From Bacillota bacterium (GTDB taxonomy: Bacteria; Bacillota; SHA-98; UBA4971), in assembly GCA_040752635.1 (NCBI GenBank), contig JBFMGS010000003.1, forward strand, positions 27,528 through 91,527: a stretch of 64,000 nucleotides of DNA. Direction: 5' to 3'. Positions 12,077-63,952 of this stretch are shown here, piece after piece (positions within the stretch are counted from its first letter, which is position 1; every line of letters starts with the position of its first letter). The position numbers were made by a program, and so were the translations under genes. The notes beneath the pieces were generated by a model that saw only the letters and a list, made by a program, of their open reading frames with translations, was not told where the DNA came from and made no database searches.

Positions 12077-12152
12077 TGGTGGAGACGATGGGAATCGAAC
12101 CCACGACCTCGTGAATGCCATTCACGCGCTCTCCCAACTGAGCTACGTCCCC
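12077..12152 (-). tRNA. tRNA-Ala (anticodon GGC), encoded CCA end
   Basis: The minus strand reads GGGGACGTAGCTCAGTTGGGAGAGCGCGTGAATGGCATTCACGAGGTCGTGGGTTCGATTCCCATCGTCTCCACCA. It folds as a cloverleaf by hand: 7-bp acceptor with the G3.U70 Ala identity pair, anticodon loop AU-GGC-AU, and T-loop GGTTCGATTCC. Confidence 0.95.
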
Positions 12153-23783: not shown

Positions 23784-23806
23784 CTGTCACCGGCTCCTGC
23801 TTCGTA

Positions 23807-23830
23807 GGGGGGTTGCCGGTGATTGCCCCC
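23807..23830 (+). repeat. Short copy of the GGGGTTGCCGGTG element (GGGGGGTTGCCGGTGATTGCCCCC)
   Basis: It lies between the minE stop (23844) and the rodA start (23783). It matches the GGTTGCCGGTGATTGC arm of the long copies at 28063 and 57808. Confidence 0.7.
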
Positions 23831-23843
23831 TTCCCTCTCTAAC

Positions 23844-25934: not shown

Positions 25935-27956
<2,022 letters not shown>

Positions 27957-28062
27957 AGTCGCTCCCTCCGGATACCCGCACGCACCCGCACGCGTTCACA
28001 TAGCTGGTCGCCAAGTAGTCGTCATTGATTCATGCCGCTTTTCAGCATGCGGTGTCTACCTA

Positions 28063-28384
28063 GGGTTGCCGGTGTCGCATTCCGGGTTCCCACTCGGAGG
28101 GAGGCATACCCCACCCCACTCCTGACGGTACTCGCTCGAAGGTATGGAGGAGGCAGGATCGAGTGCCTCCTATAGTGCCTACCCTAAGGCACGAGATCCG
28201 TCTTGCTTCTCGAAGGGGGGAATACCCCCCTTCCGACGGGTCTTACGACCCTGCCTCCCCCCTACCTTCGAGCGGGTTTGGCGACAGGGTACTGGCCCGC
28301 CCTCTGCAGGGCGCCTCCGGTTAATTCGGCCCGCAGGCATATGGCCGAATTAACAGGCCCCGTCATACAATCACCGGCAACCCC
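28063..28384 (-). repeat. Long copy A (322 nt) of the GGGGTTGCCGGTG-capped structured palindromic element, carrying a nested 161-nt insertion
   Basis: The termini GGGTTGCCGGTGTCGCAT ... ATACAATCACCGGCAACCCC pair with each other. The interior is ~90% identical to 57808-57967 apart from the insertion at 28135-28295. It lies between mreD and mrdA. Confidence 0.85.
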
Positions 28385-28549
28385 AAAGTGGGACGCATTT
28401 CTGAACGAGGCCGTTGGTTTTCTCCACCTACTAATCAAAACGTCCATAGAATGGTGTGTTTATATGCCCTTTAATCCGCGTGGTTTAGTTGATTCCAGAA
28501 TACATCATGCCAGTCGATGGCAAAAACCAGCGGCCTCCTGAACTCCCAC

Positions 28550-34701: not shown

Positions 34702-35550
34702 TCACTCGGTACACAAAACTATACCCTGCTCCGCTTGGGGTTGCCGGTGATTGCACGACCCCCTCATCACGATGCACTTCGTCGGGCACTTCTCGACGCA
34801 CTTGCCGCACGCGTCGCACTTCGTCGGGTCGATGACTGCGAGGTTGTTCTCCATGGCGATTGCCTGAGCCGGGCAAACCTTCACGCACAGCCCGCAGCCG
34901 ATGCACCCGATCTTGCACGTCTTGCGCACCTCGGCGCCCCTCGACAGCGATTTGCAGAGCACGGTCACCCGCTGGGACATGGGCACGAGTTCTATGATGC
35001 CCCTCGGGCAGGCCGAAACGCACCTGCCGCAGGCGGTGCACTCCTCCTCATCAACGACGGGGAGACCGTCAGGCCCCATGTAGAGCGCATCGAAGGCGCA
35101 CGCGGAAACGCACGAACCCAGACCGAGACACCCGTACGTACACGCCTTCGGACCGCCCCCCACGAGGTTGGCCGCCTTGCAGTCAGTAAGCCCGTCATAG
35201 GCGAACCTCGAGCCACATTTGTCGGGACTGCCCTGGCAAAAGACCCGGGCCACCTTCCGCTCTCTTGCCGCGCCGACTTCCACACCCATGATCGCGGCGA
35301 CCTTTGCCGCCACCGGGGACCCGCCGACCGGGCACGCATCGACCGGCGCCTTGCCGGCGACTATCGCGCCTGCAAGCCCGCTGCACCCGGGATATCCGCA
35401 ACCGCCGCAGTTGGCCCCCGGTAAAACCCCGGTGATCATGTCCTGCCTGGGATCCTGTTCTATCGCAAACTTCTTCGCGGCGAGCGCAAGCGCGAGGCCA
35501 AACACCGCCCCCATCAGCCCAAGGCTAAGTATTGCTTTAGCGTAGATCAT
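34702..35550 (-). CDS. rnfB: Rnf complex subunit B (polyferredoxin)
   Basis: An N-terminal TM segment, a CGGCGYPGC cluster, and several CxxCxxCxxxCP motifs. The last ~20 codons (..SCNHRQPQAEQGIVLCTE) are encoded by a repeat copy. Confidence 0.85.
   Translation of the reverse strand: MIYAKAILSLGLMGAVFGLALALAAKKFAIEQDPRQDMITGVLPGANCGGCGYPGCSGLAGAIVAGKAPVDACPVGGSPVAAKVAAIMGVEVGAARERKVARVFCQGSPDKCGSRFAYDGLTDCKAANLVGGGPKACTYGCLGLGSCVSACAFDALYMGPDGLPVVDEEECTACGRCVSACPRGIIELVPMSQRVTVLCKSLSRGAEVRKTCKIGCIGCGLCVKVCPAQAIAMENNLAVIDPTKCDACGKCVEKCPTKCIVMRGSCNHRQPQAEQGIVLCTE
34747..34773 (+). repeat. Short copy of the GGGGTTGCCGGTG element (GGGGTTGCCGGTGATTGCACGACCCCC) inside the 3' end of rnfB
   Basis: It matches the GGTTGCCGGTGATTGCATGAC arm of the long copies. 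The preceding CTCCGCTT resembles the TCCCACTT flank of the other copies. Confidence 0.7.
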
Positions 35551-38407: not shown

Positions 38408-39739
38408 TTATTTTGCCTGGACGCGGCGCCTCTTTGCCATGACCTCGGATTTTGCGAGCCTGATGGCCTGCACGAGGCGCCTGCGCGATGGGCATATGAA
38501 GGCGCAGCAACCACACTCTATGCAATCGAGGGCAGACATCCGTTCGGCGTCGTCAAACCTGCCGGCCTCGGCATAGCTTGCGATCCAGAGCGGCATGAGC
38601 CGCATGGAACAGGATTCCACGCACTTGCCGCACCTTACGCACGGCAGCGGATCCCCGAATACGGCCTCTTCCTTACTGAGGAGCAGGACGCCCGACGTGC
38701 CTTTGGTCACCGGGACATCCGTCGTGAACTGCGCGACTCCCATCATCGGGCCGCCGATGATGACCTTTGCCGGTGGGGCGCTGTACCCCCCGCACGCCTC
38801 AATAAGGTCGGTGACCAGCGTGCCGATCTTTACGAGCAGGTTCTGCGGCCGAGCTACGCACGACCCTGCCACCGTGACTACTCGTTCGACAAGGGGCATG
38901 CCAGAATAAACGGCTTCCTTGACCGCCGCTGCGGTGCCGACGTTGTTGACGACAACCCCAACATCAACCGGCAGCCCCCCGGAAGGAACCTCTCGCCCGA
39001 GGATAGCCCAAATAAGCTGCTTCTCGGCGCCCTGCGGGTACTTCACCTTGAGGGGAACGACCGCGAGTCGGTTGTCTCCTTGTGCGGCCTTCGCAATGGC
39101 GGCTATAGCATCGGGCTTGTTCTCTTCTATGCCGATGTAGGCTCTGTCCACGCCTGCAGCCTTGAGAAGGAGCTTCGCGCCGGCGATGACATCGTCAGGC
39201 CGTTCCACCATGAGCCTGTGGTCAGCGGAGAGGTAGGGCTCGCACTCCGCCCCGTTCAGGATCACCGTGTCGAACCTCTTGCCTGGTGGCGGCGTCAATT
39301 TGAAGTAGCTCGGGAACGCGGCCCCGCCCAGGCCTACTATGCCTGCCTCTCGTATTATGGCTTTGAGATCGTCAGGACCGAGCGCATCCACGTCTTTGCG
39401 GGACTCGATGTGTTCGTCGAGGACCTCTTGGCCGTCGGACTCGATCACCACGGAAAGAACGTCCCTTCCGCCTGATTGTGGGCGTGTGGAAATCTCCACG
39501 ACCTTTCCGGAGACGCTGGCGTGAACGGGTGCGGTCAGCTTGGCGCTGCTATCGCCTATTTTCTGCCCGACCTTGACCTCGTCGCCGACCTTCACCAGGG
39601 GATCACACGGCGCTCCGGTATGCTGGTGTAAGGGGATTACAACCCTCTTTGGAGGCGGCATCCTTCTTATCGGCTTTGCAGCGGTGGCCTCTTTATTGTA
39701 ATGGGCGTGAACTCCTCCTCTGAAGCTTCTCGCTACCAT
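38408..39739 (-). CDS. rnfC: Rnf complex subunit C (NADH-binding, 2x[4Fe-4S])
   Basis: GGVH...K, GLGGAAFP, CVRCGKCVESCS and CIECGCCAFICPS. The ATG at 39739 is preferred over 39796. Confidence 0.9.
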   Translation of the reverse strand: MVARSFRGGVHAHYNKEATAAKPIRRMPPPKRVVIPLHQHTGAPCDPLVKVGDEVKVGQKIGDSSAKLTAPVHASVSGKVVEISTRPQSGGRDVLSVVIESDGQEVLDEHIESRKDVDALGPDDLKAIIREAGIVGLGGAAFPSYFKLTPPPGKRFDTVILNGAECEPYLSADHRLMVERPDDVIAGAKLLLKAAGVDRAYIGIEENKPDAIAAIAKAAQGDNRLAVVPLKVKYPQGAEKQLIWAILGREVPSGGLPVDVGVVVNNVGTAAAVKEAVYSGMPLVERVVTVAGSCVARPQNLLVKIGTLVTDLIEACGGYSAPPAKVIIGGPMMGVAQFTTDVPVTKGTSGVLLLSKEEAVFGDPLPCVRCGKCVESCSMRLMPLWIASYAEAGRFDDAERMSALDCIECGCCAFICPSRRRLVQAIRLAKSEVMAKRRRVQAK

Positions 39740-41355: not shown

Positions 41356-44300
41356 GGATACCCCGCACCTTCCGGGGCGTCAGCCTCCCGTAAGTATCGT
41401 CGTTGATCATCATCGTGGGGGCGAGGCCGCACGCGCCGAGGCATGCCACGGGCTCCAGAGAGAATCTCAGGTCGTCGGTCGACTCGCCTGGGCCGACCCC
41501 GAGCACGCTCGTGACTTCCTTGAGTATGTCGCGGCTCCCCCTCACGTGGCACGCGGTGCCCTGGCAGACCCTTATTATGTTTCTACCCCTGGGCTTTAAG
41601 CGGAACTGTGCGTAGAACGTCGCCACGCCGTACACCCTGGCGAGGGGAACCCGGAGAAGTTTCGCGGCACGTTCAAGCGCCGGCCTAGGGAGGTAGCCGT
41701 AGACATCCTGCATTTTCTGGAGCATCGGTATGAGAATGCCTTCCCGAGCCTCGAACCCCTCGTATATTTCGTCAACCTTCCGGAGATCGATGCCCTCCCG
41801 GATAGTCTGCACACGGGTTCTCGCGGCTGCCAGGTCCGGTCTCGCCGCTCCCGGCAGATGGGCGCGCACCACCCTCACTGCGCATACCTTAAGCTCAGGG
41901 ATCTTCGCAATCTTATCAACGGCCGGGTTCGTCAGCACGTTTGCTGCTGCCTCGGCGAAGTGGAATGGCATGAAGACCGTGCCAGGCCTTATGCCCTCGG
42001 TTACCTTCGCCTGAGCCACAACCTCGCCTCGCCTCGATACAAGCTTCACTGCGTCCCCATCGGCGATGCCGTGCCTTTCGGCGGTGGCCGGGTCGAGCTC
42101 CACGTACGCGCCCGGGCACAGCCAGTTAAGACCCGACGACCTTCTCGTCATGGAGCCGGTGTGGTAGTGGTAGAGCACCCTCCCCGTGGTGAACACAAGC
42201 GGATACTCATCATCTGGAAGCTCGTCCGGCGGGATGAAATTGACCGGCGAGAATTTCCCGAGCCCCCTCGAAAACCTGTCCTTGTGGAGGAACTTCGTGC
42301 CCGGATGGCTTACAGACGGGCACGGCCACTGGAGCCCATCCGATCCCAGGCGCCCGTGGCGGATGCCTCCGTAGATCGGTGTGAGTAGAGCTATCTCTTC
42401 CATGAGCTCCGCGGTGGAACGGTACTCCATGCGGTACCCCATCCGCCGCGCGAGGTCCATGATGATCTCCCAGTCAGACCTGGCTTCTCCAGGAGGGTCC
42501 ACGGCTTTGGACACAAGTTGCACACGCCGCTCCGTGTTCGTGAAGGTCCCGTCCTTTTCCGCGAAGCTCGCGGCGGGCAGCACCACATCGGCCAGGGCGG
42601 CTGTCTCCGTGAGGAATATGTCCTGCGCCACGAGGAAATCGAGATTCTCCAGGGCTCCTCGTACGTGCCCGATATCGGGATCGGACACCACAGGGTTTTC
42701 GCCGCAGATGTACATCGCCCGGATGTCGCCCCTCGCCGCGGCAGAGAACATCTCCACTACCGTGAGGCCCGGCTTTCGGGGCAGGTCCACCCTCCAGGCA
42801 GCTTCAAACCTGGCCCGGGCCGCATCGTCGTCCACCCTCTGGTACCCGGGGAAGAAATTCGGCAGCGCCCCCATGTCGCACGCGCCCTGGACGTTGTTCT
42901 GCCCGCGGAGCGGGTTCACCCCTGTGCCTTCCCTGCCCACGTTGCCGGTGAGCATCGCGAGGTCGGCTATGGCGAGCACATTGTCGGTCCCGGTGGTGTG
43001 CTGGGTAATTCCCATAGTATACAGGATCGTTGCGCGCTCGGCCTCGGCATACAGGTGCGCCGCGCGCACGATGTGCCCGGCAGGGACACCCGTGATCCCC
43101 TCAACGAACTCCAGCGTGTAAGGCTCGAGCGACCGGGCGAACTCCTCAAACCCTTCCGTCCGCTCGGCCACGAACTCCTTATCGAAAAGGCCTTGTTTCA
43201 GAATGACCCTCATGATCCCACACAGGAGCGCCACGTCCGTCCCGGGGATGTGCTGCAGATGGACATCGGCAAGTTCCGCAAGCTCGATCGTGCGCGGATC
43301 CGCCACGATGAGCTTTGCGCCCCGGGCCACTGCTTCCTTCACTCGCAGAGCGATCACCGGGTGTGTCTCGGTGGTGTTGGACCCGATGATGAAGATGGCG
43401 TCGGCCATGGCGATCTCATCTATGGAGTTGGTCATGGCGCCCGACCCAAACGCGGCCGCGAGCCCGGCCACTGTTGAGGCGTGGCACAGCCTGGCGCAGT
43501 GGTCCACGTTATTCGTGCCGATGACAGCCCGCATGAACTTCTGCATTACGTAGTTCTCTTCGTTGGTGCACCTCGCCGAGGAAAGCCCGGCCACGGCGTC
43601 CGGACCGTACCGTCCCTTTATTCCCGAGAGCCTTGCCGCCACGAGCTCGAGCGCCTCGTCCCACGTGGCGGGGGCAAGGTTCCCGTCACGCCTGACGAGG
43701 GGCTGCGTCAGCCTCTCGGGATGGTGGATGAACTCGTAGCCGAACCGGCCTTTCACGCAGAGTCGTCCGTGGTTGGCGGGCCCGTCGCCCGGCTCTACTC
43801 CCACGACCCTGCCGTCCTTCACAAGGAGGTTGATGGCGCACCCGGTACCGCAATACGGGCAGATGGTTGGCACCTTCGTCTTCTCCCACGAGCGGCCGGT
43901 CATCTTCTCGAGCTTCGGAGAAAGCGCGCCCACGGGACAGCTAGCCACGCAACTGCCGCAGAAGACACAGGGCGATTGGTCAAGGCCCTCATCGTACGCA
44001 GGGGTTATCCTTGCGTCAAACCCCCGGTACGCATAGTCAATGGCACCTACCCCCTGGACCTCGTGGCACACCCGCACGCACCTGCCGCACAGGATGCACT
44101 TCTCGTTGTCGCGTTCGATGAACGGGTTGTTCCGGTCAACAACGGGCTTCCTCGTGTGCCCGACGAGGGTCGGGCCTCTTACTCCATACTTGTACGCGTA
44201 TTCCTGAAGCTTGCACGCTCCGTTTTTCTCGCACGTCAGGCAGTCCTTCGGGTGATCCGATAGTAGAAGGTCGAGGATGAGCCGTCGCGACGTGAGGATC

Positions 44301-47064: not shown

Positions 47065-47195
47065 ATTGTCACCCCTCGAACCAGGCTCGGGCGACCCTGT
47101 GCGCTCGCTCCCAGTCTGTAGGTAAGGGCGAGCCGAGGTTGCTTCAAAGCCGGCCATCGCAAGTTCGCGCCTTTTCTCGCCAGTGGGTCCCACTT

Positions 47196-47234
47196 GGGGT
47201 TGCCGGTGGTTGCTCGCACACCGCCGGCAACCCC
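47196..47234 (+). repeat. Minimal hairpin copy of the GGGGTTGCCGGTG element
   Basis: GGGGTTGCCGGTGG-[TTGCTCGCACA]-CCGCCGGCAACCCC is a 14-bp stem with one T.G pair. It is preceded by AGTGGG-T-CCCACTT (47182-47195) and lies between fhs and ndk. Confidence 0.8.
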
Positions 47235-56390: not shown

Positions 56391-57734
56391 CTACGCCCCC
56401 CATCTTGTCTTCACAAAGGACGGAATCCCGCTTGACTCGCGGGGACCCACCATCACTTCCCAACCGGACTTCTCCTCCAGCTTGCCGCTCATGGCGGCCA
56501 CGTAGCCCGGAAGGATAACCTTGCGGTGGCGGACTTTGTCAGAGACCCCCGACGAGGCAAGCGCGTCCGCGATTTTCTCCGCGGTGAACTTGCCTGCCGC
56601 CCAGGCGGTGAGCACCGACGTGCCTTCCGTGTCTATCACGAGAAGATGAGACGGCACACGACTCGCCTCAATGTCCCCCTGAACAGTGAAGAACGTCAGC
56701 GAGAAGTTGCTCGTGACGTAGAGCGGCGAATCAGGCCCGGCCTCCCCGCCGATGCTGTAGAGCTTCGCCTCGACCTGTATCGGCTTCTGAGGATCAGTGT
56801 AGATGTTCTGGCGCAGAGTAACAAGGGGAAGCACCTGCCACCTCTGGAACGACCGCATCATCACGATCGCCGCGTATTTCGCGATATACACCCCAGCCTC
56901 GGCGATCTGAAGCTCGGGGTCTTCTGATGCCACGAACGCCATAGCGGGATATCCGAATGGGCGGAACTTCTTCTTTATCGCAAGGCGCCTGATCTGGGTC
57001 AGGTCGGCGAGCGTTCGCGCCAGGGTGCGGCCGCCGGCGTCAAGGACGATGTCCTTGCAACCCGCAGCCGCAACCTTTGCCGAAAGGTCTGCAAGCTCCG
57101 AAAGGTCCTTGCTGCGGACAGCAACAGGGCAACCTGTTGACTTCCCAAGCTCCGCCATGCCTTCATAGTTGCTCGCGGTTGCGGCGTAGAGAAGGGGTTT
57201 ATCCTTCGCCACCACGTCGAGCCCGGCCTTCATCACTCCGGGGTCTTCAGTCATCAGGACGAGCGGCAATGACGTAGCCTCCCGAACCGCCGCGACTGCC
57301 TCACGGAACTTTGCGGCGTCGCCCGTATCGCTCCTCACCCCTATGAGGTTCACCCGGAGGCGTTGCCCAACGCGCTCAAACTCAAGCGAAGAGATCTCCC
57401 TGGCCTTCTCCCTCAGTGTCTCCGGCCCTTCGGAGTCGCCCAGCTCAAACCCCAGCCCTGTCTCGTGGAAAAACGTCTTGTCATGGCGGAAGAGCACCGT
57501 CTCGTCGCCTACGTCCAGCTTCGCGTCGCCCGCCCCAATAGTCACCAGCCTGATAGGTGGTGCGGACGCCGACTCGAGCGCTGCTCTCGCCTCCTCCGAG
57601 ACGTACGGGCAGGCGTCAAGAGATGCCTTGCCCGCCGCAAGAGCCATGGCAAATGCAAGACAGGTGGGAGGTCCGCACTCCCGGCAGTTCTTCTTGGGTA
57701 GAAGCTTGTATATCTCCAGCCCTGTAAGCCCCAT
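56391..57734 (-). CDS. acsC: Corrinoid iron-sulfur protein large subunit
   Basis: MGLTGLEIYKLLPKKNCRECGPPTCLAFAMALA is the [4Fe-4S] N-terminus. The ATG at 57734 is 6 nt after AGGAGG. The ORF-track extension to 57860 runs into repeat copy B. Confidence 0.9.
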   Translation of the reverse strand: MGLTGLEIYKLLPKKNCRECGPPTCLAFAMALAAGKASLDACPYVSEEARAALESASAPPIRLVTIGAGDAKLDVGDETVLFRHDKTFFHETGLGFELGDSEGPETLREKAREISSLEFERVGQRLRVNLIGVRSDTGDAAKFREAVAAVREATSLPLVLMTEDPGVMKAGLDVVAKDKPLLYAATASNYEGMAELGKSTGCPVAVRSKDLSELADLSAKVAAAGCKDIVLDAGGRTLARTLADLTQIRRLAIKKKFRPFGYPAMAFVASEDPELQIAEAGVYIAKYAAIVMMRSFQRWQVLPLVTLRQNIYTDPQKPIQVEAKLYSIGGEAGPDSPLYVTSNFSLTFFTVQGDIEASRVPSHLLVIDTEGTSVLTAWAAGKFTAEKIADALASSGVSDKVRHRKVILPGYVAAMSGKLEEKSGWEVMVGPRESSGIPSFVKTRWGA

Positions 57735-57807
57735 ACACATCCTCCTTTTTCGCACCCAAGTTGATACACGAGGGCATTTGCCACTTTGCAGCGTATCAGC
57801 CTTGCCC

Positions 57808-57967
57808 GGGGTTGCCGGTGTTGCATTCCGGGTTCCCACTCGGAGGGAGGCATACCCCACCCCGGTCCTGACGGTACTCGCCCGCCCTCTGCAGGGCGCC
57901 TCCGATTAATTCGGCCCGCCGGCAGATGGCCGAATTAATAGGCCCCGTCATGCAATCACCGGCAACC
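57808..57967 (-). repeat. Long copy B (160 nt) of the GGGGTTGCCGGTG-capped structured palindromic element
   Basis: A closing helix of ~17 bp (57811-57826 with 57950-57967). Internal hairpins include a 12-bp stem ATTAATTCGGCC/GGCCGAATTAAT (57905-57939) and GCCCT-CTGC-AGGGC. It is flanked by CCACTTTG (57781-88) and CAAAGTGG (57973-80) and lies between acsB and acsC. Confidence 0.85.
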
Positions 57968-58059
57968 TCTGACAAAGTGGCATAGGCTTCTCGTGATCGA
58001 CTCATTACAAGACACTCGTCCTCGCTCCTGTGCGCCTATCGGCGAACGTCTATGGCCAG

Positions 58060-60180
58060 CTACATCAGCGGCGGCATCGAGAGCGCCGGGTGGCCCTTCT
58101 CCTCGAGGAACGGCAGGATCTCCTCGATAGTGGTCCCCACCGTTTCATCTGCGATCTTGTTGTAGAAGCCATTGAGGCCGAGTTCCGCGGCCCGTCTCAC
58201 GAGGCCTTCCTTCAGGAACTCCTTCACTTCTTTAGGCATCCACACCACGCGGGCGAGTCCACCGTCGGCCGCGATGAACTTGCGCGACAGCACATAAGAC
58301 CTGCCGTGGCCCATGAACCCGGGCGTCTGAACTCCGCCGCCTACACTCCCTGCGAGCGTGGAGAACTTCATGCCGCACGGCGTCATTCCGCTAAACTCCC
58401 GGTTCACGATCATCACGCCGTTCGCTTCAGGGAGGATAGCCATTATGCACTCGAAGCACCCACACGAAGTCATGGGGTTCTCGAGGAGCGTGTAGATGTT
58501 CACCGTATCGAGCGTGTTGTGAGAGGCCTGCTTGAGGAACTCGTTCACCCCGACCCACTGGCCTTTCACGGGCTCGATGCATTCACCCTTTACTATCGGC
58601 TGGTTTGGGCCTGTCGGGGTGATTTCAAACGACGCCTTCGCGTCGAGCCAGCTCACAGCGCCGCAAAGGCCGATGCGCTCCGGCGCCACGATGCACACGT
58701 GGTTGGGCGCGAACGACTGGCATAGCGTGCACGAGTAGAAGGTGTCCACAGACTCGTCGGTCAGCCCGGCCAGCCTGGCGTCGCGCGCGGCATACTTCTT
58801 GCGGGCCACCTCGAGTTGCTCCAGCACCTGCGCCCTGTCGGTTATGAGCGTGACCTGCACCCTGTCTACGATTGCCGGGAAGTCCGACTTGAACTTGGCG
58901 TAGAGAATCTCTCCGAAATGGCGCACGCGGAAGCCCTTGTTGAAGGCGTCGCGGCTTATCCGCATCCAGCAGATATCCCTCTGCGCGATGTGCCAGCAGC
59001 CTTCGGCATAGTTTATGAAGTAGTGGACCCGCCGCTCCAGCACGGGCTCGAAGTCCTCCTGCATCTTGCGCCCGGCGACGTCCACCATGATGCCCAGGGG
59101 CATCGCGGTCCCGGCAGCCACCTCGTCTATCTCAGGCCCGATGACCGTTATCTTGCCGTCCTCCACCTCGTCCATGGCCCTCATCCGCACAAGCTCGAAG
59201 GCGGGCGACCTCTGCCCTCCGAACTCGACGTGCATGTCTTCCTTGCGGATGCGTTCGCCTTCGAAAGCGGGGCCGAACGTCACGGGGATCGGGATATCGA
59301 CTATCTTTATTTTGATGTTCCGGAGCTCGAGCGCCCGCTGAACCATCTTCACGTAATCAGGCTCGTACACAAACAGGTCCGGGATCTCCTCGACCTGCTG
59401 GTCAGTGACGACCGGAAACCCGAGATGGATCGCGCCGAATTCCGCCGCGATTCGCACCTCGTCGAGCTCGCCTAGGGCAAGCACGAACGCGTCAACCCTC
59501 TCTGCCTGGTACTTCAGCATCTCGCCGCGCTTTCCAGGGGCGATGCCGCCGAAAGCGAGCCCCGCCCGCAACGCGAAGTTAACCGCGTGAATGGCCGCGG
59601 TGAAATGGCCGAGCGGGAACGCCATGTAATCGGCGCCGAGGCGCATCCCTTCCTCGAGCAATTGCTCGATTATGTCGTTTACCATTATGACAAGGATGCC
59701 GCGTTTCTGGAGCTCCTTGTACAGCGTCACCGCGTCCTTCGAGGTTCGGGCTTTTCCTATTATTACGGCGACCCCGGGAATGGTGTCGTCCACGAGCGGC
59801 ACGCCCAGCTTACGCAGGACTGCATCGGACACGAACCCCATGTAGGGGTCCTTGTAAGGGTTCTTGCCGTTTATGAACTTCAGCGCCTCTATGACCTCGG
59901 CGGCGAAGAGCGTGGCTTCCCCGGCGAGCTTGGCGTTTTCGAGCGTTGGGTCGTGCCTGATATTGGCTTTGAACTTGTTGAGCACCGGCGGCAGGTCGCC
60001 GATGGTCGGAGTGTCTTCGCCTGAAAGGCTCCGTATCACAGGGAGCCTGTAGGCCGTATCAGGATAACCCACCGGAGTCTCCTCGCCGAAGCGCCTTATA
60101 GCCTGGCCAAGAAGGATCTCGGCGTAACTTGTCGCAATGATCGAGCCTTCAATAGCCGCCTTGCATAATTCTCTGGACAT
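58060..60180 (-). CDS. acsB: Acetyl-CoA synthase (CODH/ACS alpha, A-cluster subunit)
   Basis: It is collinear with known ACS: ATSYAEILL..AI...G...PVGYPDTAY.LPVI, the A-cluster motif region CTLCQSFAPNHVCIV.PER.GLCGA.SWLDAKA, CGCFE, and the C-terminus EEKGHPALSM.PL. The ATG at 60180 follows GGAGGGAGGG. Confidence 0.95.
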   Translation of the reverse strand: MSRELCKAAIEGSIIATSYAEILLGQAIRRFGEETPVGYPDTAYRLPVIRSLSGEDTPTIGDLPPVLNKFKANIRHDPTLENAKLAGEATLFAAEVIEALKFINGKNPYKDPYMGFVSDAVLRKLGVPLVDDTIPGVAVIIGKARTSKDAVTLYKELQKRGILVIMVNDIIEQLLEEGMRLGADYMAFPLGHFTAAIHAVNFALRAGLAFGGIAPGKRGEMLKYQAERVDAFVLALGELDEVRIAAEFGAIHLGFPVVTDQQVEEIPDLFVYEPDYVKMVQRALELRNIKIKIVDIPIPVTFGPAFEGERIRKEDMHVEFGGQRSPAFELVRMRAMDEVEDGKITVIGPEIDEVAAGTAMPLGIMVDVAGRKMQEDFEPVLERRVHYFINYAEGCWHIAQRDICWMRISRDAFNKGFRVRHFGEILYAKFKSDFPAIVDRVQVTLITDRAQVLEQLEVARKKYAARDARLAGLTDESVDTFYSCTLCQSFAPNHVCIVAPERIGLCGAVSWLDAKASFEITPTGPNQPIVKGECIEPVKGQWVGVNEFLKQASHNTLDTVNIYTLLENPMTSCGCFECIMAILPEANGVMIVNREFSGMTPCGMKFSTLAGSVGGGVQTPGFMGHGRSYVLSRKFIAADGGLARVVWMPKEVKEFLKEGLVRRAAELGLNGFYNKIADETVGTTIEEILPFLEEKGHPALSMPPLM

Positions 60181-61463: not shown

Positions 61464-63407
61464 TCACTCTGCTACGAGGCCCTCAGCGGGGCTCGCAGCG
61501 GAGTACTTGCGCCTCCAGTTCCGGTAGTCGAGCGCCTCGATGAGCTTTGCCGAAGCCTTCATGGGGTCGGTTTCCAGGATGAAGTACCCGCCGAACACGT
61601 CCTCGGCTATCTTGGTCACGACCTCGGTGACGAGAGTGCTTCCATAGACAGGCGGGATAACACCCACGTGAGTCGGGAAGCCAAGCGTAACCGCCCACGA
61701 GCCGATGGAAACCGCTTTCTCATGCATGGCTTCCGGGGCCGTGGCGACATACGGGATGTCACATATGTCCGCTCCCATCTCCTTTGCTATCATCACCGCC
61801 AGGTCAACGGCGCGGGAGTTGTCCACGCACGATCCCATGTGGAACGCAAGAGGCAATCCTCCCTCGAAACCTGACGCCTCGGACAGCCTGTGGAGGAACC
61901 GCTTGAGCCCGGGCCCGGCGAATTCATCGACCGCTCCCGACGTCATGTAGCCGGCCTTGGCCATGGCCCCGGCTGCACACCCGGTCGCCACGATGAAGAC
62001 ATCGTTCTTTGCGAGTTCCCTCGCAATGGTAAGATGGCCGTCGTCGTGTTTGGCCTTGGTGTTCGTGCAACCCGCGAAGAGCGCGATCCCCCTGATCTCT
62101 CCGTCTTCGATGGCGTCCACGAGCGCCCGTATGGGCTTCTCCTTGTTGATGGAGGCAAAGATACCCAGCATCGCCTCGAGGCTGAAGCCGGCGATCACCT
62201 CGTTCTTCGCCTGGGGTATGTGAACCTTCGACCGGTCGCGCTCCCGGAACGCTTCGATGGCAAGCTTCACGATGCGGCGCGCGCTCTCTTTTGCCCTCTC
62301 CTCGCGGAAGTCCACGTGATACGCTCCTGGAATCTTCGAGAACGGGATCGTCGTGATAAGCTTTGTGTGGAAGCATTCGCAGAGCGTCTTGAGAGCCGGC
62401 ATGATGCACTGGAGATCAACGATTATGGCGTCCACCGCCCCGGTCATTATGGCAAGCTCCTGGGCGATGAAGTTCGTCGCGAGCGGAACCCCCTTTCTCA
62501 TCAGGACCTCGTTCGCGGTGCAGCATATGCCGACGACGTTGATCCCCGCCGCGCCCGCCGCCCTGGCCTCATCCTCCATTTCGCGGGCCACGTCAACCAC
62601 GATCTCGCTGAGAAGCGGGATGTGGCCGTGGACCGTGATGTTGACTTTCGCCGGGTCGAGCACTCCAAGGTTGGCCTGGCTCTTGAGTGGCCTTGGGGTG
62701 CCGAACAGGATGTCGGTCAGGTCTGTGCTGAGGTGGCATCCTGCGTAGTCTGCGAGGGCGCTCTTTAGCCCCCCGAAGATGAGGTTGACGGGGTCGGCGT
62801 CAACGCCCATGGTTGACCTGTGCATGACCTCAGCGATGGCGCCGTTGATATTGCTTGGCATGATGGCGCATTCCTCGAACTTCTCGGTCATGCCGGGCGT
62901 TACGGTAGACGTAACCCACGTGCACGGCTCCTCTTCAAGCCGTGAGAAATCACGCAGCGCTGCAATGGCCACCTCACGCGTGATCTCGGCCGCAGTCTTA
63001 CCGCTGGGGTCGATCCCGATCCGCCTCGCAACCGCCTCGGCCTTCGCGGGGTCTGCGATTCGGTAGTCGGGCGCATGGCCATCGAGATGGGCGAGAAGTG
63101 TAAGGGCGACGTGCCTTCCATGGTCCGAGTGAGCCGCGGTGCCCCCGGCTATGGCGCGTATCACGTTCCTGGCGACTATGGAGTAATCGGTCGCCCCACA
63201 TATGCCACGTTTCGCGCCTTCGCCGAACGGATCTATGCGGCATGGCCCCTGCAGACATATGCGGCAACAGACGCCCAGGTTCCCAAAGCCGCAAAGAGGC
63301 TCCTGGGCACGGCACCTATCCCACACGGTCTCGAGGCCTTCATGCTCTGCGTGGTTCAGCATCTCGAGCGCGGCGGGATCGACGCTTCTTTCCTCCAGCC
63401 TTCCCAT
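61464..63407 (-). CDS. cooS: Anaerobic carbon monoxide dehydrogenase catalytic subunit (Ni,Fe-CODH; CODH/ACS beta)
   Basis: N-terminal D/B-cluster cysteines (C.FG..GVCCR.C..GPCRI). C-cluster ligand regions are HGH, CCTANE, GC.N and MGSCVDN. 647 aa. Confidence 0.95.
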   Translation of the reverse strand: MGRLEERSVDPAALEMLNHAEHEGLETVWDRCRAQEPLCGFGNLGVCCRICLQGPCRIDPFGEGAKRGICGATDYSIVARNVIRAIAGGTAAHSDHGRHVALTLLAHLDGHAPDYRIADPAKAEAVARRIGIDPSGKTAAEITREVAIAALRDFSRLEEEPCTWVTSTVTPGMTEKFEECAIMPSNINGAIAEVMHRSTMGVDADPVNLIFGGLKSALADYAGCHLSTDLTDILFGTPRPLKSQANLGVLDPAKVNITVHGHIPLLSEIVVDVAREMEDEARAAGAAGINVVGICCTANEVLMRKGVPLATNFIAQELAIMTGAVDAIIVDLQCIMPALKTLCECFHTKLITTIPFSKIPGAYHVDFREERAKESARRIVKLAIEAFRERDRSKVHIPQAKNEVIAGFSLEAMLGIFASINKEKPIRALVDAIEDGEIRGIALFAGCTNTKAKHDDGHLTIARELAKNDVFIVATGCAAGAMAKAGYMTSGAVDEFAGPGLKRFLHRLSEASGFEGGLPLAFHMGSCVDNSRAVDLAVMIAKEMGADICDIPYVATAPEAMHEKAVSIGSWAVTLGFPTHVGVIPPVYGSTLVTEVVTKIAEDVFGGYFILETDPMKASAKLIEALDYRNWRRKYSAASPAEGLVAE

Positions 63408-63506: not shown

Positions 63507-63952
63507 CAAACTATGAGGGCCCCCTCTCTTACGAGCAGGGCCCTCGTTGGACAGTCTCTCACGCAGGCTGGTTCTTTTTCGTCCGGGCATCGGTCGCATT
63601 TCAGCGCGACCTTTTCGCCCTCATGTATCTGGATGCTGCCGTACGGGCAGACCATCACGCACATGTGACACCCCACACACCGGGAGGTGTCGTTATACAC
63701 CCGGCCGACATCCTCGTCGATCCTCATGGCGCCGCTGATGCACGCCTCAACGCACGGCGCATCCTCGCAATGGAAGCACCTCAGCGGGAAGTATTCCCCG
63801 GCCTCCCTTGTGACACGCACCCTCTGCCTCGGCAGCGGACGCTCCCAGACCGCGCGGTGTATGTCGTGGCTTTCGGAGTGCATAAGAGCGCACGATATCT
63901 CGCACTGGCGGCAACCCACGCACTTACTGAGCCTGACGAATATCTCCTTCAT
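63506..63952 (-). CDS. cooF: CooF-like 4Fe-4S ferredoxin-type electron carrier
   Basis: CVGCRQCEISC, CFHCEDAPCVEAC, CVGCHMCVMVCP and C.RC........CV..CP. The ATG at 63952 follows AGGAGGTG. Confidence 0.8.
   Translation of the reverse strand: MKEIFVRLSKCVGCRQCEISCALMHSESHDIHRAVWERPLPRQRVRVTREAGEYFPLRCFHCEDAPCVEACISGAMRIDEDVGRVYNDTSRCVGCHMCVMVCPYGSIQIHEGEKVALKCDRCPDEKEPACVRDCPTRALLVREGALIV

Follow-up and report, generated by a model that had tools for sequence, protein, structure and literature searches.

The spacer between acsB and acsC on a 64,000-nt stretch of Bacillota DNA (contig JBFMGS010000003.1, positions 27,528 to 91,527; the window) contains a strongly folded element, copy A. It is very probably an old copy of a non-autonomous DNA transposon, a MITE (short for miniature inverted-repeat transposable element), whose core is the 160-nt block described in an earlier sequence-only reading of the window. 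The family to which copy A belongs is a new, abundant and G+C-rich family of MITEs, a kind of selfish element that is already known. The assignment follows from inverted repeats at the termini, from the duplication of TA within a target resembling CTAG, the lack of coding capacity, the large number of copies and the presence of deletion derivatives, chimeras and fragments. Copy A itself is probably immobile today. Understood as a MITE, the conspicuous structure in the carbon monoxide dehydrogenase/acetyl-CoA synthase (CODH/ACS) operon would be an insertion and not a conserved regulator of acetyl-CoA synthase expression, and a tempting false lead is removed.

A scan for GGGGTTGCCGGTGRTTGC in one genome per species gave at least 117 stretches. 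The genomes with several matches were all Bacillota metagenome-assembled genomes (MAGs), seven among the matches listed (lineages JAAYXB, JACIXY, JBLNDE, JASEJE, JBLNDA, DUMQ and DKEX). At least 54 loci of the family are found in seven MAGs, and the fetched loci together with the window contain 98 non-overlapping profile matches. Motif-capped units in the fetched loci fall into two sizes, 112-117 nt (54 units) and 42-47 nt (seven units). In the seven related Bacillota MAGs the pair GGGTTGCCGGTG...CACCGGCAACCC is the inner helix of a larger unit: when 60-nt flanks were included in the alignment, conservation ran approximately 40 nt further on each side. The canonical unit is 195 nt long, 199 nt including the flanking TAs, and has the layout C-TA-AGTGAGGGTGCAGAAATGCTCCCGACTTTTGGGA-core-GGCAACTACTGGAAGAGGGGCGAGAACTAACGCACCCTCACT-TA-G. 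Its terminal inverted repeats measure 14-20 nt (outermost 11-14 nt in the aligned unit) and begin TA-AGTGAGGGTGC... or TA-AGTGTGAGTTCAGAAATC...; in type 1 they are AGTGAGGGTGC and GCACCCTCACT, the unit reading C-TA-AGTGAGGGTGC...GCACCCTCACT-TA-G. Pairs of outer repeats are 183-185 nt apart. An inner inverted repeat, GGGGTTGCCGGTGATTGCA/TGCAACACCGGCAACCCC, is strongly conserved and encloses at least two local hairpins, with imperfectly complementary arms outside. Over 43 full copies, the edge of conservation is marked by C on one side (41/43) and G on the other (41/43), beyond which the composition is random, and the pattern C-TA-[element]-TA-G is present in 37-41 of the 43. One metagenome copy carries 20-nt termini matching at 19 of 20 positions, each including the TA. 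The G+C content of the family is ~65%.

Members differ in length and in make-up. Deletion derivatives of 87, 124 and 140 nt occur, as do chimeras, solo fragments and nested insertions. No fewer than four types of arm, each with the ends TA-AGT[G/A]...ACT-TA, are mixed with two or three core types in different pairings; we conjecture that recombination or template switching at the invariant inner repeat lies behind this shuffling. In minimal cores of 43 nt, the loop occurs either way round between the same outer arms (TTGCCCTCTATCTTTGAGT at L028 3124-3166 vs ACTCAAAGGGAGAGAGCAA at L008 1905-1947; also L042, L048 and L102), which suggests flipping by recombination between the repeat arms. At L100 1393-1807 two adjacent members differ in arm and core type and occupy a single site, which carries no element in the orthologous L049; what lies between them looks like a partial repeat of the target's flank. 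A type-3 terminus was found in the metagenome scan on 13 short contigs from one sample (L123-L135, Ga0067045), all of them MITE copies. Eight of these 13 contigs begin or end within roughly 185 nt of the terminus; breakage at the element points to fragmentation of short-read assemblies and implies a high copy number in that organism. A typical copy was also present on a 2.8-kb contig of an Ignavibacteriales bin (L051, JBLNBR010000042.1). The same project yielded two of the Bacillota MAGs, and this copy is probably the result of a binning error, not of spread across phyla.

Mobility of the family is seen in orthologous loci with and without the element. Locus L049 reads ...GAGAC-TA-CGCGCC... 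where L100 reads ...AAGAC-TA-[element]-TA-GGCGCC..., and L009 reads ...CT-TA-GCC... where L011 reads ...CC-TA-[element]-TA-GCC.... In a third pair L069 is without the element of L006, the difference being less clean. Turning to the acs operon, the nearest relative of the window (AcsB 84% identical) has an acsB-acsC spacer of 196 nt without the element (L118 12122-12317), and no family match was found anywhere in 22 kb of this relative. The element is therefore an insertion in the lineage of the window and not a conserved part of the operon. The spacer of this relative holds a short tandem repeat, AGCTCAGT, in three copies, which indicates a fast-evolving site tolerant of insertions.

Copy A was recognised as a member of this family by a profile hidden Markov model that was built from foreign copies only and then run on the window. 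With nhmmer, positions 25-195 of the 199 in the model align with 57981..57760 (envelope 57756-57998, E 2e-15); no other nucleotide similarity was found between the window and the MAGs of the family. What we call the forward strand of the family is the minus strand of the window at copy A and is sense with acsB and acsC. Covariance modelling and a search of further genomes had both been suggested in the sequence-only reading; the search revealed more copies, and the core model R1 detects the core of copy A at 77.7 bits (E 3.7e-15) on the minus strand and at 24 bits on the plus strand. The 160-nt block had been taken for the unit itself. It is only the core, since homology with the family runs to about 57760-58005. 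Nor is copy A the founding member that it was thought to be: the family normally has a unit of 199 nt, of which copy A is a longer variant specific to its lineage. The extra length includes a hairpin domain that forms a 37-column insertion relative to all 50 foreign cores and is common to copy A and a second copy of the window, copy B. A 20-mer from this window-specific hairpin had no match in the metagenome collection.

The fold of copy A had been described correctly. By sequence and inverted-repeat scan all named stems lie where they had been placed, including the GCCCTCTGCAGGGC palindrome, TGACGG/CCGTCA and CCGGG/CCCGG, and the element is strongly folded as claimed: the 205-nt region of copy A has a fold z of -4.84 when read on the minus strand and of -4.30 on the plus, and 0/200 shuffles were as good. 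The whole 246-nt unit folds at -124 kcal/mol. In the closing helix, the scan paired 57802-57820 with 57957-57975 and 57821-57832 with 57944-57955. The stem of hairpin 1 can be extended to 27-nt arms. Hairpin 2 has homologues in subfamily 1 (GCGCCCC-GCTT-GGGGCGC) and subfamily 2 (GGCGCGC-CGCAA-GCGCGCC). The outer bracket CCACTTTG/CAAAGTGG is likewise present, though it is really part of a 15-nt inverted repeat (57774-57788 / 57973-57987, 87%), with weaker similarity further out. The outer ends, compared by eye as GATACACGAGGGCATTTGCCACTTTG vs GATCACGAGAAGCCTATGCCACTTTG, have decayed, and the end on the acsB side reads ...GACTCAT-TA-CAAGAC. The statement that no terminus of an insertion sequence (IS) could be matched fails for the reason that the real termini lie ~40-50 nt further out on each side, where they look like IS630-type ends.

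Transposases of the IS630/Tc1-mariner type insert at TA, often within CTAG, and duplicate these 2 bp. The TA-duplication signature points to a transposase of this type as the mobilising enzyme. RUP of Streptococcus pneumoniae, whose presumed mobiliser is IS630-Spn1, acting at TA sites, is a precedent, and terminal inverted repeats, terminal TA and target duplication are hallmarks of bacterial MITEs (PMC2229807). Transposition would proceed by cut-and-paste in trans, a DDE transposase of the IS630/Tc1-mariner type binding the terminal repeats and inserting the element at TA. The conserved inner repeat could serve as a second protein-binding site or provide homology for the exchange of cores and arms. 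In the window lineage the element would have entered the acsB-acsC spacer with both genes and the acsC ribosome-binding site undamaged. There it is presumably transcribed within the acs operon mRNA and would form a very stable long hairpin; read-through as part of the operon mRNA is expected since copy A has no terminator or promoter.

Several observations weigh against this interpretation. No autonomous partner with matching ends turned up, be it in the window, in ~0.5 Mb of related Bacillota loci, among the 13 contigs from a metagenome or in collections of phages and plasmids; several accepted bacterial MITEs, Correia among them, are likewise not known to have one. No pairs of outer repeats ~1 kb apart were found, and a six-frame regular-expression search for the IS630/Tc1 signature SPxLNPxE found none in the ~0.5 Mb of Bacillota loci or in the window. 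Copy A has degenerate ends (CA...TA, imperfect outer repeats), so that its own insertion is not demonstrable, and the orthologous spacer is too diverged to give a clean empty site. In addition, TA...TA flanks alone look the same whether 2 bp have been duplicated or an element-borne TA lies beside a target TA. In 32 type-1 copies the two arms of the inner closing helix have mean pairwise identities of 0.976 and 0.952, compared to 0.86 for the termini and 0.87 and 0.74 for the arms, a pattern opposite to the one most simply expected where a transposase defines the element. In hairpin 1, six of nine pairs are changed on both sides with pairing kept. Finally, between co-directional genes 18 copies are sense and 2 antisense (p = 4e-4), a bias that random cut-and-paste does not predict and that is based on crude open reading frame (ORF) calls filtered by third-position G+C content (GC3), gene direction in Bacillota being confounded with replication direction. 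Another 11 copies lie between convergent and 8 between divergent genes.

Candidates for a partner did not stand up to inspection. A motif pair 1132 nt apart in L110 was considered as a full-length IS and rejected; it encloses a permease gene of an ABC transporter, so the pair represents two separate elements. The sole SPxLNPxE match lies in an unrelated Planctomycete chance locus. BLAST against plasmids and phages gave no match, and of four pattern matches on viral contigs none was a family member.

The sense bias bears on an explanation that is compatible with an origin as a MITE, namely that the element acts at the RNA level in a REP/BIME- or Correia-like role in processing or stability, sense copies being retained by selection. 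It could serve RNase III as a substrate, shield the upstream acsB segment from 3' exonucleases or uncouple the expression of acsC from that of acsB. Within the window, both long copies are sense and the antisense ones are stubs. The forward-strand RNA is the more stable in 40 of 43 full copies (-111 vs -103 kcal/mol), and the consensus folds at -81 kcal/mol forward vs -66 reverse. Hairpin 1 covaries: compensatory changes are TTAATTCGGCC/GGCCGAATTAA in copy A and AAAATCCGGCC/GGCCGGATTTT and GAATTTGGC/GCCAAATTC in other subfamilies. Measures of covariation over the whole structure exceed all 500 shuffles and all slid controls, although covariation is not a clean test because the copies are related by descent. 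Cleavage of Correia elements by RNase III and effects of ERIC elements on transcript levels are precedents (PMC2229807; PMC10969869). However, wobble pairs do not consistently point to one strand: where a helix is predicted for either strand alike, the ratio of G.U to A.C cells is 21:21, and hairpin 1 has more A.C than G.U. We set this count aside as a test for selection on RNA, since it is balanced in shared helices and uninformative. The operon can do without the element, as the nearest relative lacks it in the corresponding spacer; copies occur between divergent and convergent genes as well; the gene calls are crude, and gene direction is confounded with that of replication; and the asymmetry in energy may have been inherited from one master copy, the copies being related. 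On balance we regard a function in RNA as unlikely to be the explanation of the element. The sequence-only reading had left three options, a processing or stability module, a MITE and an autonomous small RNA. The MITE is borne out by terminal inverted repeats, TA duplication, empty and filled sites, dozens of copies and the absence from the nearest relative's spacer, the autonomous small RNA is disfavoured, and an RNA-level side effect on processing or stability may exist as a secondary layer, kept alive by the 18:2 sense bias. In a related and, to our mind, rather doubtful scenario, the invariant inner helix with its covarying hairpins is a selected structural module carried on interchangeable MITE arms, either a mobile RNA hairpin or a recognition site in folded DNA. 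Such a module would explain core conservation above that of the termini, shuffling among at least four arm types and near-exclusive sense retention between co-directional genes. In the first case a sense-oriented hairpin would influence how operon mRNAs, for example that of acsB-acsC, are processed or how stable they are; in the second the folded DNA would be recognised by some enzyme.

Folded DNA could also be recognised during mobilisation as a single strand by an HUH/Y1 transposase, in a REPIN/RAYT- or IS200/IS605-like manner, one flanking TA then coming from the target and the other being carried by the element. Hairpin structure kept by compensatory changes, pairing that is equally good on both strands, an inner inverted repeat more conserved than the termini and the loop inversions between copies agree with this proposal, and the orientation bias could reflect insertion coupled to the replication fork. 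Orientation is associated with local GC skew (45:25), but more weakly than with gene direction, and at convergent plus divergent loci the ratio is 12:7. The symmetric, sharp inverted-repeat ends of 14-20 nt are typical of DDE elements and unlike those of IS200/IS605. Compared to REPs, the inner half-repeat is not itself a hairpin and has no GTAG-type head, and a ~199-nt unit with long arms is unlike a REP of 20-40 nt. No Y1 gene was seen, though no search aimed at Y1 genes was made. Taken together, we judge single-strand mobilisation very unlikely. We give still less credit to the idea, extremely improbable in our view, that the structure is a small RNA gene in its own right, or represents a new class of ribozyme or riboswitch, and simply occurs in many copies. 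The strong predicted structure with its multi-helix junction, the one covarying hairpin and the lack of a match to any known family would be in keeping with it. Against it, promoter and terminator are absent, the loops lack conservation, copies occur in every kind of context including gene 3' ends, insertion polymorphism comes with TA duplication, and deletion derivatives without the junction are frequent. In Rfam, Twister-P5 alone was hit, and with 13.3 bits (E 3.2) it stays far below its gathering score, 37.6.

Database searches and scans gave the same picture for copy A. At gathering thresholds, Rfam reported only a tRNA in the whole window, and permissive searches of 57700-58100 gave only Twister-P5, far below threshold; the earlier statement that no Rfam family matches holds at both settings. 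The riboswitch, terminator and promoter readings of copy A were rejected on the copy distribution and the scans. A gene-specific riboswitch had already been ruled out, correctly, from the multi-copy distribution. An intrinsic terminator or attenuator was rejected too: on both strands, 57650-58120 gave 0 sites resembling a terminator, with no G+C-rich hairpin directly before a U-tract, and nothing promoter-like was seen in or beside copy A. ORFs overlapping copy A are short and either cross the element boundaries into the flanks or are antisense to the operon. No description of the motif was found in the literature searched, where full-text matches were to unrelated sequences only, e.g. PCR primers.

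The window contains five family sites (Table 1), and its 14 matches to the cap motif at up to two mismatches compare with 3.4 expected. Pfam confirms MreD and PBP2 on either side of copy B. This copy gave two nhmmer matches, 28406..28298 (model 11-126, E 1e-12) and 28086..28013 (model 131-197), and its core scores 41.5 bits with the covariance model. Copy A shares two blocks with copy B (part 28062-28384), one of 76 nt (95% identical) and one of 95 nt (94%), and ~150 nt are inserted between the two. What had been called a near-identical copy is hence near-identical in two blocks and split between them. Whereas the cores are 94-95% identical, the arms are ~60-70% alike by eye, those of copy B being different and decayed. 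The nested palindromic element in copy B has an inverted repeat GCTCGAAGGTA...TACCTTCGAGC (28130-28161 / 28246-28277, 88%) and is bracketed by an imperfect direct repeat of ~12-15 nt, GACGGTACTCGCTCG / GACAGGGTACTGGCCCG. It is unrelated to the MITE family, and no further copy was found in the window or the fetched loci. Rfam gave nothing significant on copy B including the nested element (DUF3800-XI 19.6 vs a threshold of 37.8).

Three shorter relatives had been reported at sites between cistrons. All three exist, but the one at 34713-34765 lies inside the 3' end of a Fer4 ORF (34702-35550) and overlaps its last codons as called; the last ~20 codons of this ORF appear to come from transposon debris. 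The minimal derivative (47197-47233) scores 27.3 bits with R1 (E 5e-4) and has an nhmmer match at 47195-47216, the neighbouring genes being identified by Pfam. The two long copies of the window are sense, and the three antisense copies are reduced to stubs. Two further matches, an outer-repeat-like one at 63519 and one to the covariance model at 25939-26031, were judged on inspection to be due to chance.

The acsB-acsC spacer measures 325 nt, as reported before, and Pfam confirms both genes. The RACo gene, identified by Pfam, is on the minus strand like acsB and acsC. AcsB of the window is 100% identical to a 706-aa protein (P0001) of a 'Bacillota bacterium' MAG. Look-ups of AcsB, RACo, P0001 and the product of a 647-aa ORF beside the acs genes (61464-63407) as exact proteins gave no record. 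Copy A starts 52 nt past the acsB stop codon and is followed by CAACTTGGGTGCGAAAAAGGAGG, read directly. A GGAGG at 57741-57745 lies 14 nt from its acsC-side end, and the ribosome-binding site of acsC is thus intact. Elsewhere in the window, the only Rfam match at the gathering threshold is a tRNA gene at 12080-12152 (minus strand). The direct-repeat families D1 and D3 (GCACTTGCCGCA...; 34785-35052, 38616-38653 and 44065-44110) are apparently coding, with Cys-rich Fe-S motifs of ferredoxin-like genes, and not mobile; Pfam backs this for the copies at 34785-35052 only, inside the Fer4 ORF 34702-35550.

Table 1. Positions in the window of copy A and its parts, the neighbouring genes and the other members of the family
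Feature	Position	Strand	Basis and remarks
Copy A, whole unit (very probably a MITE), ~246 nt	about 57760..58005	minus	nhmmer profile from foreign copies only; own outer inverted repeat
CA dinucleotide, acsC side	57758..57759		presumed remnant of duplicated TA; placed from model position 196-198
TA dinucleotide, acsB side	58006..58007		presumed second duplicated TA, by analogy with family ends C-TA-AGTG...CACT-TA-G
Core of copy A (160-nt block)	57808..57969	minus	covariance model R1; aligned with 50 foreign cores
Closing helix, 3' arm (minus reading)	57808..57826	minus	plus strand GGGGTTGCCGGTGTTGCAT; pairs with 57951-57969
Closing helix, 5' arm	57951..57969	minus	minus strand GAGGTTGCCGGTGATTGCAT; fold and inverted-repeat scan
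Hairpin 1	57901..57943	minus	12-bp stem, 57905-57916 with 57928-57939; 11-nt loop
Hairpin 2	57885..57898	minus	GCCCT-CTGC-AGGGC on plus strand; inverted-repeat scan
Extra hairpin domain, ~40 nt	57827..57866	minus	closed by CCGGG/CCCGG; only in two window copies
acsB	58060..60180	minus	Pfam CODH_A_N, CdhC, ACS_CODH_B_C; upstream gene
acsC	56391..57734	minus	Pfam FeS and CdhD; downstream gene
Copy B, ~403 nt including nested insert	about 28014..28416	minus	between mreD and PBP2 gene (mrdA), sense with both
Nested palindromic element in copy B, ~146-150 nt	28139..28287		own 32-nt inverted repeat; fold z -7.87
Minimal derivative, FTHFS-NDK spacer	47196..47234	plus	closing helix only (GGGGTTGCCGG...CCGGCAACCCC) and left-arm trace TCCCACTT; antisense to genes
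Fragment, left arm and 5' closing arm (model 13-59)	34713..34765	plus	nhmmer 34713-34758, E 1.4e-5
Fragment, 5' closing arm only, RodA-family gene-minD spacer	23806..23837	plus	nhmmer 23806-23827, E 0.008; exact motif

For uncultured Bacillota, the family provides an element with clear ends that fragments assemblies, can lengthen genes by some codons and reveals where close MAGs differ by a recent insertion. Moreover, the conservation of the inner repeat, the shuffling of cores and arms and the sense bias make it a test case for the filtering of MITEs by operon transcripts or their co-option into them.

Among known intergenic repeats, REP, BIME and REPIN elements resemble the family as G+C-rich extragenic palindromes within operons, REPINs being inverted doublets that form long hairpins. 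REPs are hairpins of 20-40 nt with a conserved tetranucleotide head and no target duplication, and roles in mRNA stability are known for this group. In contrast, the half-site GGGGTTGCCGGTGATTGCA of the present family is not self-complementary, and the element combines long arms with 14-20-nt terminal inverted repeats and, at empty and filled sites, is flanked by TA...TA. With half-sites that are not hairpins and with TA duplication, the family falls outside the definition of REPs. BOX and SPRITE of S. pneumoniae and ERIC of enterobacteria are likewise modular, structured and mutually nesting intergenic repeats with orientation-dependent effects on transcripts (PMC10969869). BOX, however, has boxA, boxB and boxC in tandem and not nested as inverted repeats, and SPRITE is terminator-like, whereas the element described here is without a U-tract.

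Closer parallels are found among TA-flanked MITEs. Correia elements of Neisseria (CREE/NEMIS) are TA-flanked MITEs of ~100-155 bp whose transposase is not known and which show size variants by internal deletion (PMC2229807; PMC10969869). Transcripts of neighbouring genes often include them as long hairpins, which RNase III cleaves (PMC2229807; PMC10969869), and ERIC elements affect transcript levels (PMC10969869); a corresponding RNA effect is hypothetical in the present family. Correia elements belong to another phylum and have another sequence, and their conserved part is the 26-bp terminal inverted repeats, some with an IHF site, while in our family the inner helix is the most conserved part. 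RUP has no sequence similarity to the family, and its ends match IS630-Spn1, while the family described here has no partner found. The latter is also G+C-rich (~65%) and nearly twice as long, with a conserved inner repeat enclosing separate hairpins. The likeness to RUP covers the lack of coding capacity, a size of 100-200 bp, the Bacillota host, the inverted repeats at the termini, TA as the insertion site, numerous copies between genes and an IS630-family enzyme that acts in trans (PMC2229807), the last of which would apply by analogy to copy A and its relatives.

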